Below are positions 6,445-15,090 of a stretch of DNA of 28,163 nucleotides, one piece after another; within the stretch, counting starts at the first letter, position 1; each line of letters begins with the position of its first letter. The stretch is from an uncultured Phycisphaerales bacterium. Lineage in GTDB: Bacteria; Planctomycetota; Phycisphaerae; Sedimentisphaerales; Anaerobacaceae. The stretch spans positions 1-28,163 of the forward strand of contig CALMMH010000636.1 in the NCBI GenBank assembly GCA_937868145.1, written 5' to 3'. Below the pieces are notes generated by a model. It searched no databases. It was not told where the DNA came from and was given only the letters and a program-made list of their open reading frames with translations. The translations under genes and the position numbers were made by a program.

Positions 6445-6750
6445 CTACGAGTCCATCAAGAACTCCGTCGCGGGTTCTCCCGCTTCGAGCGCATCGAGCA
6501 CGGCTTCCGCCTTCTGTTCGGTCATTTCGCCATACCACCAGCCGGCCGGGTAGACGACCATCGCCGGGCCGCGCGTGCACACCTTCAGGCAGCCGGTGCT
6601 GGAGACCTGGGCGTCCAGGCCGCGATTGATGATTTCCTCTTCGAGGTATTGAAGCAGGTCCCTGGCTCCCTTTTTGTTGCAGACGCCCTGGGGTTCTCCC
6701 GTGAGACGAAAACTGTTGCAGACAAAGATGTGATACTGAGGTTTAGCCAT
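6445..6750 (-). CDS. Thioredoxin-like [2Fe-2S] ferredoxin (nif-associated type)
   Basis: Cys11, Cys24, Cys54 and Cys58, with HIFVC and GCLKVCTRGPAMVVYP. This resembles the Clostridium pasteurianum-type 2Fe-2S ferredoxin. SD AGGAGAG. Confidence 0.88.
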   Translation of the reverse strand: MAKPQYHIFVCNSFRLTGEPQGVCNKKGARDLLQYLEEEIINRGLDAQVSSTGCLKVCTRGPAMVVYPAGWWYGEMTEQKAEAVLDALEAGEPATEFLMDS

Positions 6751-8107
6751 GTTGCTCTCCTGTCATGGGGACGGTTGCCGGACAGGCGGGACGCCTGCTT
6801 TCCGCAAAGAGCATCACTCCCGCGCATCCGATCAGACCGACCAGAAAACTGTAAAGATAACAGCTCATGTAATCGACCTGACGGGGTCCGCCGGAAAAAA
6901 CATGGACGAGATGCACCCATAGCCCCATCAGATTCGTATTGACGAATTGCACGCAGCCGGCGACGAGCAGGAACCCTGAATTCATGAAGCCCTTCCTCGC
7001 CGGATCGATCTGATCGAACAGGAAGGGCCACAGGGCCAGCAGAGCCGTGCGGTCGAACACCGCGTCGGCCACGTTGAAGACGACGATGGCCGAGACGGGC
7101 GGGACGCCCTGCGGCGCGACATACTTGACGTACCCCCAGAAGACCGCCGGGTGCAGCGTGGACAGCAGAAGACAACCGGCAAAGAGTTTGAATTTGTCCA
7201 CACGGTCGATGAACACCGCCAGCAGCGGCAGGACCAGAACCGTGTTGATCAGCATGGTCGTCCCGTGCATGTTTCCGAGCATATGTTTGGTGTAGCCGAA
7301 CTGCTCGGTGATCAGCAGAGGCCGTAGATTCATCGGCTGCGTGGCCATCAAAACAGAACTGACGACCAGAATGCACAGCAGGCGGTTCTGGCGCATCAGG
7401 AACATCTGACGCAGATACGCCGCCAGACCCATGCGTTCTCTGCTCTCGCAGGGTCGCGGGCGTTCCCGGACGAAGAGCAACACGATGCAAAGAGAGACAA
7501 CCACGAGAACCGCAGCCGAGAAGTAGATGACCTGTTCTCCCGTCAGGCTGGCCCACCGAGATTTCGACAAGGCCGCAGACGCCATCTTGGCGCCCACGTT
7601 CTCGTCGAACCGGCCGATCAGGAAGAACATGAAGACGAATCGCGCGGCGATCGAGGCGTAGCGGTTGATGACCATCGCCCGGCCTCGTTGCTCCGTGGGC
7701 ACCAGGTCGAAGTAGAGCGGATTCCACGGCCCGGTGTAACCCAGATCGACCGCAAACTGATACATCACGATCACCGCGATCAGCGTGACGAGATTGGACG
7801 TGCCCGGGATCAGGACCAGCGAGACCGCCAGGAAGGCGAAGCCCGCCGCGATAAAGGTTTTTCTGCGGCCCAGGAACGTCCGCACGGAATCGCTGCGGTA
7901 CGCAACCCAGGGCGCGATGACCACCGCGAACAGGCTGTTGAGGCTCCCGATGCAGAGAATCCAGGCGGGGTTGCTGATGTATTTCTTGAGCGTGAACGTC
8001 AGCGCCGTGCCGCTGCACTTCTCGACGAACGCGAACGTCGCCACCGGGATGCTCAACAGCACCAGCCAACCCCAAGGAATTCGTTTCTGTCCTGCATGAA
8101 TCGGCAT
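6743..8107 (-). CDS. MFS transporter
   Basis: About 12 hydrophobic segments. Loop motifs SDSVRTFLGRRKTF, LYFDLVPTEQRGRA and IDRVDKFK. The stop overlaps the ferredoxin start by 8 nt. Confidence 0.85.
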   Translation of the reverse strand: MPIHAGQKRIPWGWLVLLSIPVATFAFVEKCSGTALTFTLKKYISNPAWILCIGSLNSLFAVVIAPWVAYRSDSVRTFLGRRKTFIAAGFAFLAVSLVLIPGTSNLVTLIAVIVMYQFAVDLGYTGPWNPLYFDLVPTEQRGRAMVINRYASIAARFVFMFFLIGRFDENVGAKMASAALSKSRWASLTGEQVIYFSAAVLVVVSLCIVLLFVRERPRPCESRERMGLAAYLRQMFLMRQNRLLCILVVSSVLMATQPMNLRPLLITEQFGYTKHMLGNMHGTTMLINTVLVLPLLAVFIDRVDKFKLFAGCLLLSTLHPAVFWGYVKYVAPQGVPPVSAIVVFNVADAVFDRTALLALWPFLFDQIDPARKGFMNSGFLLVAGCVQFVNTNLMGLWVHLVHVFSGGPRQVDYMSCYLYSFLVGLIGCAGVMLFAESRRPACPATVPMTGEQHG

Positions 8108-8114
8108 GGCGTTC

Positions 8115-9074
8115 TCATTCGACCGTGGTCGGCTGGGTCTCGGACGGTTCCCAGTATGTCATGAATTCGATAAGGTCCTGGAGGTCGATGACGCCGTCGC
8201 CGCCCAGCGGCACGATGTCTCCGACCAGGCCGTCTCCGGTTTCCTGCCAGTGATCGACGATGCAGGACAGGTCGGCCGAGTCGATCCTTCCGTTCGAGTC
8301 GAAATCGACCGCGCCGGCCGCCAGGGTGGTCTCGACCTCCAGGTACGGTCCTGTGTCCCGGATCGTATAGGTTCCGTTCTTGTTGCACTGGACATAGGCG
8401 CGAATGTTGAAGCACGCGCCGCTGTTCAGGGGAGCGTGGAGCATGAACGTCACGATCTCGTCGTTCTCGATCGCGACGACCAGTCCGGCATAATTCGGGT
8501 CCGTCAGATCGAGCTCGAAAGCAAACCAGTTCTCTCCCGCCGAGTAGGGATGTCTCGCATCATAGTGGAGCGTTTCAAGATACGTGGGAGTCGTGCTGTC
8601 CAACAGGGACACAAGCTCTGTGTAGGTAATCCCGACGTCCGGGCCGGCCGTCACGCTGGGGGTTCCGTAACCCTGCTGCCAATCGTTCGAGATCCACAAC
8701 AGATCGAAGTCGCCGGGGCTTCCCAGGTAGTTGAAGGCTCCGTTGGCCGACTGGTTGCCGCTGGTGATCGCCAGTTTCAACGTCATCCGGGAAAGCGTCG
8801 TGCCCTTGCAGAGAGAGGCGTCGAACTTCAGCAACGTGATGAACTCCCCCTTGGGCTGATGATCGATTCCCTCATTCGGGTCATAGGCCCGCGCGGTCGA
8901 GGAAGACACGCACAGGGAGCCCGACCCGCCGAAGTTCCGATCGTTGGCGTCGGGCAACGGAGACCCGACGCCCGGACTGAGCACGAACGTGTTGTTGACG
9001 GGACGCAACGAGCCGGTGACCGCGAAGCCCCGAACCGCCGGCAACAACAGAACTGCAATCAATGCTCTTCTCAT
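8115..9074 (-). CDS. Secreted protein with DNRLRE/CBM96-like domain and C-terminal dockerin/EF-hand-like repeats
   Basis: Signal-like N-terminus and strong SD (AAGGAGG). NTFV...DRNFGGSGSLCV...LLKFD pattern. Ca-loop repeats DFDSNGRIDSADL and DGVIDLQDL. The domain names are assigned from motif resemblance only. Confidence 0.65.
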   Translation of the reverse strand: MRRALIAVLLLPAVRGFAVTGSLRPVNNTFVLSPGVGSPLPDANDRNFGGSGSLCVSSSTARAYDPNEGIDHQPKGEFITLLKFDASLCKGTTLSRMTLKLAITSGNQSANGAFNYLGSPGDFDLLWISNDWQQGYGTPSVTAGPDVGITYTELVSLLDSTTPTYLETLHYDARHPYSAGENWFAFELDLTDPNYAGLVVAIENDEIVTFMLHAPLNSGACFNIRAYVQCNKNGTYTIRDTGPYLEVETTLAAGAVDFDSNGRIDSADLSCIVDHWQETGDGLVGDIVPLGGDGVIDLQDLIEFMTYWEPSETQPTTVE

Positions 9075-9098
9075 GGATTCCTCCTTCTTCGCTCCCGA

Positions 9099-14013: not shown

Positions 14014-14340
14014 CTAAAGTTGCTTTTGCCCCGAGCTGATCGTATACGCCTCCTCGACGGGGGTGATGAAAATCTTCCCGTCGCCGTGGGCGCCCTTGGA
14101 GCCCGTCCGGGCCGCTTTCATGATCGTATCGATCACGAAGTCCTTGTCTCCGTCGTTGATGACGGTCAGAATCAGCTCCTTGGGAAGCTCGTCATAGGTG
14201 ACTTCCCCGATCTTCATGCCTCGCTGCTTGCCCCGGCCGAACACGTCCATCTTCGTCACGGACGGATATCCGGCGTACATCAACGCCGACAGCACTTCAT
14301 CGACCTTCTCCGGTCGCACAATGGCCCTGATCATGATCAT
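14014..14340 (-). CDS. nifI1: P-II family nitrogenase regulator NifI1
   Basis: [25 protein letters not shown] and GDGKIF. First of the P-II pair after nifH. Confidence 0.88.
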
Positions 14341-14382
14341 TCGGCAGTCCTTTCAAGTCCTGGGTGGAGTTCTGGAAAACAG

Positions 14383-15011
14383 TCACGCCGCCAACACGCC
14401 AAAGTCGAGCAGGAGACTCTCCAGTTCCGGAATCGCCAACGGCTTGGGGATGACGAACATCTCGTTGCCGTCGATGCTGCGGGCCAGCGTCCGGTACTCG
14501 TCCGCCTGGGGCGCCTCCGGGTTCCATTCGATGACGGTCTTCCTGTTGATCTCGGCCCGCTGCAGACGATGTAGATCTCCTCGGCCTTCCCCTCGCGGAT
14601 GGGCATGGCGAACCCGCCGCAAACGACGTCGCCCAGGACGTCGTAGAACGCATAGTCCAGGCTCTGCGAGTCGGCGTAGGCGCCGAGCTGTTCGAGCAGG
14701 TTGATCGAAGTGATAATGCCCCGGCCGGCGCAGCCCACGCCGGGCTCCGGCCCGCCCGATTCCACGCACAGCGTGCCGCTGTAGCCGACCCGCCGGATGT
14801 CGTCCAAATCCACATCCTCCCCCTCCTCCCGAAGCGTATCGAGCACCGTCTTCTGCGCCAGGCCCCCGAGCAACAGACGCGTCGAATCCGCTTTCGGATC
14901 GCACCCGACGACCATCACCTTCTTGCCCATCTCCACCAGCGCCGCAACCGTGTTCTGGGTCGTCGTGCTCTTGCCAATGCCGCCTTTGCCGTATATGGCC
15001 ACTTTTCTCAT
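14383..15011 (-). pseudogene. nifH: Nitrogenase Fe protein with internal deletion and frameshift
   Basis: The 5' frame has [23 protein letters not shown] and ends at EIYIVCSG. The true C-terminus ([12 protein letters not shown]...DFGVLAA stop at 14383) follows immediately in another frame. The EMMAMYAANN...HFVPRDN segment is absent. Confidence 0.9.
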
Positions 15012-15073
15012 CTACATTTCTCCTGGAAACCAAACCTGTGAGCGTCATGTCTTTTCGACATCACGGATACCTT

Positions 15074-15090
15074 ATGCAACCCTCGTGCCA
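15074..15090 (-). promoter_or_regulatory. Sigma54 -24/-12 promoter of the nifH operon
   Basis: TGGCACGAGGGTTGCAT on the minus strand (GG-N10-GC), 63 nt upstream of the nifH ATG. Confidence 0.9.

Follow-up and report, generated by a model that had tools for sequence, protein, structure and literature searches.

Gene content and regulation of the operon

The window we analyzed is a whole contig of 28,163 nucleotides (28 kb; CALMMH010000636.1) from the metagenome-assembled genome (MAG) GCA_937868145.1 of an uncultured Phycisphaerales bacterium from the order Sedimentisphaerales. The MAG comprises 5.77 Mb in 1150 contigs and is 90% complete. The window contains a nitrogen fixation (nif) operon whose genes all lie on the minus strand, in the order nifH' (a broken nifH), nifI1, nifI2, nifD, nifK, a NifB remnant fused to a pseudopilin-like protein (NifB'::pseudopilin), a secreted protein resembling CBM96 proteins, a permease of the major facilitator superfamily (MFS), and a [2Fe-2S] ferredoxin. 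We refer to the genes for the pseudopilin, the secreted protein and the permease as the cassette, and to the genomes and loci used for comparison by handles beginning with G and L, respectively. The gaps downstream of nifK measure 7 nt (or 19 nt when counted to the ATG at 10481 as the start codon of the next gene), 24 nt, and 7 nt, and the reading frames of the permease and the ferredoxin share 8 nt. A preliminary description of the window had reported this gene order, strand and spacing together with a sigma-54 promoter, all of which are borne out by the sequence and by promoter and profile scans.

Both nifD (11900..13537, minus strand; TIGR01862, 554 bits) and nifK (10501..11883, minus strand; TIGR01286, 438 bits) are full length and score above the cut-offs of their models. 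NifD is of the long clostridial type and aligns end to end with the NifD of C. pasteurianum (4WES), as NifK does with 1MIO_B; the likely start of nifK is the ATG at 11883, in a frame that is open from 11925. NifD keeps the motifs RGC, HGPIGC, ATCPVG, SQSAGHHIAN, CHRSINY, and HSYDY, and NifK keeps CQPIGA, HGSQGCC, HTTCLSE, and TPSYAGSH. Judged by their sequences, the two are MoFe-protein subunits that retain all P-cluster and iron-molybdenum cofactor (FeMo-co) ligand motifs. The two P-II family genes between nifH' and nifD, nifI1 (14014..14340, minus strand; Pfam P-II, E 1.5e-22) and nifI2 (13598..13996, minus strand; E 2.9e-22), are in place, and nifI1 is 94% identical to its counterpart in L065.

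The sigma-54 promoter TGGCACgagggTTGCA (15075..15090, minus strand; TGGCAC-N5-TTGCA) lies 64 nt before the nifH ATG and is the only match to all 11 consensus positions within the window. Upstream of it, a NifA-type sigma-54 activator is encoded at 15393..17039 on the minus strand. The protein has the GAF, sigma-54 AAA+ and HTH (Pfam HTH_8) architecture and scores 481 bits against TIGR01817, whose cut-off is 529. Its orthologues in nif-bearing relatives are 59-60% identical, rising to 84% in L065; in G055 the orthologue is found 8 kb upstream of nifH. We considered and rejected the idea that this NifA is the cassette's own activator, since the activators that accompany the cassette elsewhere are only 41-45% identical to it, compared to 59-60% for the nif-linked NifA proteins. 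A search upstream of nifH for the NifA upstream activating sequence TGT-N10-ACA found none. A second sigma-54-like site, TGGCATggaagTTGCA (17176..17191, minus strand; 10/11 consensus positions), precedes nifA, which hints that the activator may be autoregulated or under NtrC-type control. Within the operon run we found neither sigma-70-like promoters nor convincing terminators, the weak terminator-like matches being confined to the permease frame. From this arrangement we infer that the run from nifH' to the ferredoxin gene is probably a single transcript that would be induced under nitrogen limitation.

The broken nifH and the missing cofactor-assembly genes

We regard a NifH as intact if a single open frame spans the whole Fer4_NifH model, which has about 270 positions. 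In the window, model positions 1-150 lie in one frame and positions 213-270 in another, and the nifH pseudogene (14383..15011, minus strand) accordingly consists of a 5' part at 14556-15011 and a 3' part at 14383-14568. In an alignment with the two closest relatives, L065 and L090, whose nifH is intact, the window lacks exactly 199 nt at TGCAGCGGG (14556-14564), and in L090 the 8-mer TGCAGCGG is present at both ends of the piece that the window lacks. A deletion between repeats of 8-9 nt, as the alignment depicts it, is the signature of slippage or a microhomology deletion. The preliminary description had listed nifH without noting a break; the gene is not intact. The shifted frame remains open for 72 codons, and its TGA overlaps the ATG of nifI1 (ATGA, 14337-14340); translational coupling of the frameshifted nifH to nifI1 may therefore survive the deletion. 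NifH is required for electron delivery, for P-cluster maturation, and for FeMo-co synthesis. Because nifH is broken, the nitrogenase of this genome is predicted to be inactive, and as far as its sequence tells, the operon in this genome cannot yield an active enzyme.

The minimum gene set for a nitrogenase has been given as nifHDKENB (Dos Santos 2012, PMC3464626); of these genes only nifD and nifK are intact in this operon. The preliminary description had proposed that nifE, nifN and most of nifB were lost, and had suggested searching the remainder of the genome for nifE, nifN, nifB, and a second nifH. None of them was found in the 90%-complete MAG, which is consistent with loss: nifD and nifK are its only PF00148 genes, nifH has no second copy, and searches for NifB with TIGR01290 and a protein query yielded only a C-terminal fragment lacking the radical-SAM domain. 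A homocitrate synthase of the size of NifV is also absent from the MAG. Searches of G156 (97% complete) and G096 (88% complete) likewise yielded no nifE, nifN, nifB, or NifV-sized gene. The suggestion that the assembly genes lie elsewhere in the genome is thus unsupported in all three MAGs.

A NifB remnant fused to a pseudopilin

The reading frame that follows nifK encodes 460-464 amino acids (10481/10493-9099), with the ATG at 10481 as its likely start. Its first part (10071..10481, minus strand) is what remains of NifB, namely a linker and the C-terminal NifX-like domain (Nitro_FeMo-Co, PF02579, E 3e-10). This part covers only positions 324-423 of TIGR01290 and scores 43.5 bits against a cut-off of 344. 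Alignment to the full-length NifB of G055 identifies it as the last ~120-140 NifB residues, through the C-terminal GCGCG, whereas the first ~283 residues of the G055 protein have no counterpart in the window.

Immediately after GCGCG the frame continues through PSDE-G|FTLAELL, with G|FTLAELL at 10058-10035, into a prepilin-type DUF1559 (SBP_bac_10) pseudopilin-like protein (9099..10070, minus strand). Its prepilin motif GFTLAELLTVLAVIAVL is followed by a hydrophobic helix, and the region matches the N_methyl models PF07963 (21.4 bits, cut-off 21.2) and TIGR02532 (22 bits, cut-off 16.3). Against the DUF1559 model PF07596 the window protein scores 14 bits (E 0.048), under the cut-off; among 14 members of its family, 10 match N_methyl and six match PF07596, with a best E value of 8e-9. 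The pilin part has no in-frame start codon of its own, and unfused orthologues begin with a short basic leader (e.g., MLSNEHNK-G|FTL). If a prepilin peptidase cut the fusion between G146 and F147, the predicted leader of ~145 residues would be freed as a cytoplasmic NifX-like protein; if the fusion were left uncut, the NifX-like domain would stay at the inner face of the membrane. In the literature we searched, we found no described precedent for a fusion of a NifX-like domain to a prepilin.

The secreted protein, the permease, and the ferredoxin

The gene that follows the fusion encodes a protein of 319 amino acids (8115..9074, minus strand) with a signal peptide, a body spanning residues 18-251, and a tail at residues ~255-312. 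In the AlphaFold2 model the core of the body is a beta-sandwich with predicted local distance difference test (pLDDT) values of 80-95, and the tail falls below 50. Foldseek matches the protein to 8WAB (E 1.8e-8; template modeling (TM) score 0.70 by target) and to 7VBO (E 3.5e-7), with TM scores of 0.4-0.46 by query. Its neighbors in the AlphaFold database belong to clusters named CBM96/DNRLRE, and the Pfam CBM96 match (E 0.006) is under the cut-off. By its predicted structure, the body is a beta-sandwich of the CBM96/DNRLRE type; among solved structures it comes closest to CBM96 modules whose ligands are chondroitin sulfate and alginate.

In the tail two DxDxDG-like calcium loops are visible. 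Its match to Dockerin_1 (PF00404) has an E value of 0.078 and 13.6 bits, below the cut-off of 22.9; the match to EF-hand has an E value of 0.0014. The protein had been called a secreted dockerin protein in the preliminary description. Secretion is upheld, but the dockerin label applies only as a weak match to the tail, the body being of the CBM96/DNRLRE type. Since the tail is dockerin-like in the window and a PEP-CTERM in G050 and G055, it may be a surface-anchoring module. The C-terminal ~65 residues (8115-8310) also match the C-termini of hundreds of otherwise unrelated proteins of the order, with up to 29 per genome, which suggests that the dockerin-like tail is a clade-wide module for surface anchoring or sorting.

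The permease (454 amino acids; 6743..8107, minus strand) resembles the glycoside-pentoside-hexuronide (GPH)/MFS_2 type, an assignment that is based on its homologues and on an Atlas feature score of 0.99 to MFS clusters. The earlier assignment to the MFS is probable from these homologues, most of which (66 in total) carry PF07690 (MFS_1) or PF13347 (MFS_2), some being named Na+/melibiose symporter-like; the window protein itself has no Pfam match and only a 47-residue match to TIGR01301. The operon ends with a thioredoxin-like [2Fe-2S] ferredoxin of 101 amino acids (6445..6750, minus strand; PF01257, 23.6 bits with a cut-off of 24.8; NF041612, E 4e-24). This ferredoxin is the usual end gene of the nif core in the order and is orthologous to the ferredoxin that follows nifB in G055, G050, and G028.

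The cassette in other Sedimentisphaerales

Many Sedimentisphaerales genomes and metagenome contigs encode orthologues of the pseudopilin, the secreted protein and the permease (35-88% identical) together and in unchanged order, in neighborhoods that vary. The cassette is found directly behind a NifA-like GAF/AAA+/HTH activator in G050 and G385/L047, and with a sigma-54 site 51 nt upstream in G055, where it also stands next to or within nif. It follows a complete nifDKENB-fdx cluster and precedes modABC in L088; it stands between nifN-B-fdx-nifV and modABC in L102; and in L096 it precedes modABC with no nif gene within 7 kb. In G055, L103, and L092 it precedes an SBP_bac_6-CobW-ABC set. The cassette is divergent from nifH in G096 and L119, follows nifK-fdx in G156 and nifK-NifB-like-fdx in G066, and stands alone in L087, L089, and L091. 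These contexts indicate that the three genes form a unit which is conserved in the order and regularly accompanies nif and molybdate-transport genes. A more distant group of permeases (38-41% identity) has none of these neighbors. In L092 (8001-10352), which comes from an 8.8-Mb planctomycete genome, the permease is fused in frame to a DUF1559 prepilin-like protein (P0061, 783 amino acids), followed by SBP_bac_6, CobW and an ABC ATPase; this fusion is a Rosetta-stone hint at a partnership of binder and permease.

Two of these loci contain further genes near nifK. In G066 a divergent NifB-like gene lies between nifK and fdx (L068 9220-10323, G066:C29); its product is 34% identical to the NifB of G055 and scores 130 bits against TIGR01290, and an ordinary nifE-N-B-V set is present on a separate contig (L069). 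In G156, nifK and fdx are 450 nt apart at the place expected for nifENB; an 88-amino-acid open reading frame of no assigned family (L066 9238-9692) fills this gap, and the same frame is called in a near-identical Logan contig. P0009, a close relative of G156, has the same layout.

The preliminary description had placed a planctomycete-style cassette between the nifB remnant and the ferredoxin, and both its position and its planctomycete character are borne out. The further idea that an uptake system had newly captured NifA control does not agree with the distribution of the cassette, which is a long-standing companion of nif and mod genes and elsewhere stands behind NifA-like activators. A fresh insertion of foreign DNA was rejected as well: there is no GC anomaly, and the layout is common to species that are separated by a dS of 0.5-1. 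Neither does adjacency of the cassette always coincide with the loss of nifENB, as L088, L102, and G403 have both the cassette and nifENB.

History of the operon

At least five other assemblies have the layout of the window, and nifH is intact in two of these; the joints are shared with the independent assemblies L062, L064, L065, L090, L098, and L099. The permeases of L062 and L064 are 88 and 83% identical to that of the window. The synteny comparison that the preliminary description had recommended thus argues against a misassembly of these joints. In L065 and L090 the order is NifA-nifH(intact)-I1-I2-D-K-pilin-sec-MFS-Fd, where sec denotes the gene for the secreted protein, and the NifB remnant is absent.

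The genome G403, which belongs to the same family, has the order D-K-E-N-B-pilin-sec-MFS-Fd-modA-B-C, and G328, of the same genus as G403, has a plain K-E-N-B-Fd-modABC cluster. In G403 (L120 7120-13013, G403:C92) sec, MFS, and modB are each split over two frames; these may be either real pseudogenes or errors of a MAG that is 67% complete. Judged by the order of genes in G403, the earlier wording that the cassette replaced the assembly genes is imprecise, because the cassette preceded the deletion of nifENB.

From these comparisons we infer the following order of events. The ancestor would have had K-E-N-B-pilin-sec-MFS-Fd-modABC, an order still found in G403. One deletion would then have taken nifE, nifN, and the radical-SAM part of nifB, joining the NifX-like tail in frame to the pseudopilin. 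This layout would have persisted across several speciations, while purifying selection acted on nifHDK, on the cassette, and on the NifX-like domain of the fusion. In the present genome, the 199-nt microhomology deletion would have broken nifH afterwards.

What looks like a later stage of decay is found in G186 (L070 3882-10272, G186:C47), where nifHDK are absent and a GH43-like fragment is found in their place, followed by the cassette and the ferredoxin. In this genome NifA is split by an internal deletion and a frameshift, and the NifX remnant is interrupted by a stop; within the cassette, the sec frame runs into the MFS gene, and the otherwise invariant Cys31 of the permease is replaced by Arg. 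G003, a member of the window's genus, retains a frameshifted nifD relic of 118 nt that is 87% identical to window positions 12296-12412. The relic (L028 6255-6372, G003:C571:18254-18371) is collinear with the window and lies 2.6 kb from the homologue of window positions 23.6-23.9 kb. No nifD matches were found in the other 21 genomes of the window's genus.

Selection, phylogeny, and census

Comparisons between the window and L065, made at dS values of 0.5-1.2, gave dN/dS ratios of 0.03-0.045 for nifH, 0.03 for nifI1, 0.115 (0.08-0.15) for nifD, 0.07 for nifK, 0.09 for both NifA and the ferredoxin, and 0.14-0.19 for the cassette genes (0.14-0.16 for the permease). Overall, the cassette genes range from 0.13 to 0.25. 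For nifK the comparison with L062 gave 0.057 (0.034-0.086). For the 120 codons of the NifX-like part, the comparisons among the window, L062, and L064 gave 0.12 (0.05-0.25), 0.33 (0.17-0.62), and 0.24 (0.12-0.45), so that every confidence interval lies below 1. These ratios indicate that nifHDK, the cassette, and the fused NifX-like domain stayed constrained after nifENB left the operon, and because nifHDK remained constrained, the break in nifH must be recent. We rejected the notion that nifDK are relaxed relics, given dN/dS values of 0.06-0.11 and no acceleration on the branches of lineages without nifENB.

In the NifD+K phylogeny the lineages without nifENB do not form a clade: G000 (the MAG of the window) and L065 group with G328 and L088, G156 with G102, and G096 with G050 and G100. 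Branch lengths in these lineages do not exceed those in the sister lineages. This scattered placement reveals that nifENB were lost, with nifHDK retained, at least three times independently (four times if L090 is included). The alternative that all operons without nifENB represent one transferred unit was rejected, as the NifDK tree follows the families and each lineage without nifENB has a sister that possesses them.

A census of 401 genomes of the order found the permease in nine and PF00148 genes in 25. Four PF00148 hits (D, K, E, N) are present in 19 of the 25, and only G000, G096, and G156 have two hits; these three also are without NifB and a NifV-sized gene, and in all three the cassette is attached to nifHDK-Fd. 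Among the 19 genomes that keep nifEN, 18 have nifEN in the nif locus and no adjoining cassette; the remaining one, G066, has an attached cassette and nifENB at a second locus. The association between possessing only nifDK and having an attached cassette gives a Fisher p of about 0.003, with lineages that are few and related. In this sample, the loss of nifENB with retention of nifHDK occurred only in operons linked to the cassette.

Genes flanking the operon

On the plus strand, positions 1-6317 encode part of a porin, a pair of long permeases resembling PstC/PstA (537 and 546 amino acids), a PstB-like frame, and PhoU. This left flank is kept in the genus at 73-85% identity, and synteny stops at ~6250. 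Upstream of nifA, a frame of 1328 amino acids with a GH106 (alpha-L-rhamnosidase) domain occupies 17696-21682 on the minus strand. The stretch matches other genomes of the same genus at 77-81% identity and is missing from G004, where the counterparts of window positions ~17.2-17.6 kb and ~22.9-24.3 kb adjoin on one contig. Since both flanks match genomes of the same genus at 73-85% identity, the contig belongs to that genus.

Interpretation and alternative explanations

We consider it probable that the window contains a NifA/sigma-54-driven nif operon with a long-resident accessory uptake cassette, from which nifENB were deleted and in which nifH was freshly broken in this genome. The cassette would act as an envelope uptake system, in which a surface-anchored binder and a membrane-anchored DUF1559 protein resembling solute-binding proteins (SBPs) serve an MFS permease. 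The cassette would be turned on along with nitrogenase, whose regulon it would serve. In the present genome, NifA-controlled expression of the operon could at most still yield the cassette proteins and the ferredoxin. The repeated adjacency to modABC and to SBP_bac_6-CobW-ABC makes the supply of molybdenum or another metal the most likely role of the cassette, a preference that we hold only tentatively. Uptake of a glycan or another nitrogen-bearing solute is our second choice, and a more doubtful one. The preliminary description had also thought of an accessory for acquiring metal or cofactor. The presence of modABC or SBP_bac_6-CobW-ABC directly downstream in several unrelated contigs agrees with this idea, but the nitrogenase which the accessory was thought to serve is inactive here.

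Several observations weigh against parts of this explanation. The AlphaFold2 model of the pseudopilin, whose SBP-like fold is putative, has a pLDDT of 38. The ferredoxin gene stands before the cassette in L088, G066, and G156 and after it in the window, a difference that one deletion cannot explain. The strong purifying selection on nifHDK after the loss of nifENB is left unexplained, unless nifENB are present at a second locus that the MAGs miss. In L087, L089, and L091 the cassette has no nif or mod gene nearby, and the CBM96-like fold together with the GPH-like permease points to sugars as much as to metals. Finally, among four sequencing runs that we mapped, no public read of the window organism crosses the nifH junction at 14556-14564, and the deletion in nifH is therefore seen only in the assembly.

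This last observation, and the fact that the MAG was assembled from short reads into 1150 contigs, would fit a chimeric contig or a deletion introduced by the assembler. The shares in the searches of the runs were low (0.05-0.09), the mapped fragments are partly 97-100% identical and cross the MFS/Fd and sec/MFS joints, and the reads that end at the nifH junction derive from other organisms with an intact nifH. An artefact nevertheless appears extremely unlikely. The joints from nifK through NifB'::pilin, sec, and MFS to Fd are found again in assemblies made independently from other samples, and the MFS/Fd and sec/MFS joints are spanned by public contigs that share 97% identity with the window. 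Both flanks match the genus, and a repeat of 9 nt is not long enough to mislead a k-mer assembler, being instead the classic signature of a slippage deletion.

The cassette could alternatively scavenge nitrogen from glycans with no tie to metals: a surface lectin would bind a polymer, acidic or made of amino sugars, whose oligomers a GPH-type permease would import, with nif co-regulated through nitrogen starvation. The closest solved folds being carbohydrate-binding modules for chondroitin sulfate and alginate, the annotation of homologous permeases as Na+/melibiose symporter-like with MFS_2 matches, the NifA-like GAF activators directly upstream in G050 and G385, and the richness of the order in glycan degraders, with a GH106-like gene in the window itself, would all suit such a function. 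Nevertheless, we think this rather unlikely: modABC or SBP_bac_6-CobW-ABC lie directly downstream in six separate contexts, in L096 without nif within 7 kb, the conserved unit includes no glycoside hydrolase, and the fold matches reach TM scores of only 0.4-0.46 by query.

If, on the other hand, nifE-N-B-V were present at a second locus that was not assembled or not binned, the operon would be an ordinary nif core with accessory genes. G066 provides a model for this arrangement, with nifHDK-NifB-like-Fd and the cassette at one locus and nifE-N-B-V on another contig; a MAG that is 90% complete and in 1150 contigs leaves room for it, and a working system would be expected to keep nifHDK under purifying selection. 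A split system is, however, improbable, as no match to nifE/N (PF00148), nifB (TIGR01290 and protein query), or a NifV-sized gene was found in any of three MAGs (90, 97, and 88% complete), and a chance miss of such a locus in all three is itself improbable. In the window genome nifH is broken in any case.

A more radical possibility is that the lineages without nifE, nifN, nifB, and nifV keep a working nitrogenase because FeMo-co, NifB-co, or some other precursor made by neighbors is taken up through the cassette, the NifX-like domain on the cytoplasmic side of the pseudopilin passing the cofactor to NifDK; the window would then represent a clade member that has just lost nifH. G156 and G096, where nifE, nifN, and nifB were not found, have an intact nifH-I1-I2-D-K with all cofactor ligands, a layout also present in L065 and L090, and a NifV-sized gene was found neither in them nor in G000. 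According to the NifDK tree, the losses were independent and came without rate acceleration, nifH, nifD, and nifK remained under purifying selection after the deletion, each of the three genomes that have nifDK alone has an attached cassette (with the same Fisher p and the same few, related lineages as above), and the NifX-like domain was selectively kept while the rest of NifB is gone. However, the cassette coexists with complete nifENB (L088, L102, G403) and occurs without nif (L087, L089, L091), the NifX fusion is absent from G156, G096, L065, and L090, the permease family is of the sugar type, assembly genes on islands or plasmids can escape MAGs, and nifH is dead in the window genome. We know of no instance in biology in which FeMo-co or a precursor is imported, and these clusters are extremely labile; we therefore judge cofactor scavenging to be very improbable.

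Under the reading that we favor, that of an eroding nif operon with a resident uptake cassette, the window is one member of a series. Within one family, a nif operon appears to be dismantled stage by stage, from the full cluster through the deletion of nifENB, the breaking of nifH, and the disappearance of nifHDK, to a 118-nt relic. The DUF1559 pseudopilin, the CBM96-like protein, and the permease constitute a conserved planctomycete accessory module of nif and mod genes for which we found no earlier description, and the huge, functionless DUF1559 family thereby gains a concrete and testable context. A puzzle is posed by ordinary NifHDK with all ligands, strongly constrained in at least three independent lineages in which no nifB, nifE, nifN, or nifV was found: either a second locus is systematically missed by MAGs, or the cofactor is obtained or used by an unknown route. 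Counts of nifH or nifHDK in metagenomic surveys may mislead when taken as evidence for diazotrophy.

Comparison with known systems

A literature search found nothing on nif clusters of Sedimentisphaerales, nor on gene sets without nifENB and nifV that retain ordinary, constrained NifHDK. Nitrogenases without NifEN are known from Roseiflexus (nifHBDK) and from thermophiles lacking NifN or NifEN, and they retain bona fide NifDK (PMC3464626, PMC11573651). These known exceptions retain NifB (Roseiflexus, PMC11573651). The thermophile systems without NifEN always keep nifB, usually keep nifV, and have distinct NifDK lineages, whereas the window has neither nifB nor nifV, and its NifDK fall within the clade of the order.

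The fusion and the cassette resemble known proteins in part. The NifX-like domain matches the family of NifX, NafY, and NifB C-terminal domains (PF02579) and aligns to the NifB tail of relatives, but it is detached from a radical-SAM domain and lies upstream of a prepilin motif, in place of the short basic leader of the orthologues. With DUF1559 proteins of Planctomycetota and the Planctomycetes-Verrucomicrobia-Chlamydiae (PVC) group the pseudopilin shares the G|FTLxE motif, the hydrophobic helix, and a C-terminal H...DGH motif; it differs from them in belonging to a subfamily that is tied to a CBM96-like protein and an MFS permease in a fixed three-gene unit and that is fused to the permease in one case (P0061). 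The SBP-dependent secondary transporters, tripartite ATP-independent periplasmic (TRAP) and tripartite tricarboxylate (TTT) transporters, offer an analogy only. The proposed logic is the same, an extracytoplasmic binder handing its solute to a permease; however, there is no sequence relation, the permease in the window belongs to the MFS, and solute binding by the DUF1559 protein is only proposed.

The closest known system is the anaerobe-type cluster (clostridial or group II) with the order nifH-I1-I2-D-K-E-N-B-fdx(-nifV)-modABC, which is present in its full form in the relatives G028, G055, G050, G328, and G385. The window shares with it the order of nifH, nifI1, nifI2, nifD, and nifK, the terminal 2Fe-2S ferredoxin, NifA with a sigma-54 promoter, and NifD and NifK similar to those of C. 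pasteurianum. It differs in having lost nifE, nifN, and the catalytic part of nifB, in its frameshifted nifH, in having no modABC or nifV downstream, and in the envelope cassette that lies between the NifB tail and fdx. The operon of the window is a variant of the anaerobe-type nif cluster and not a separate kind of system.

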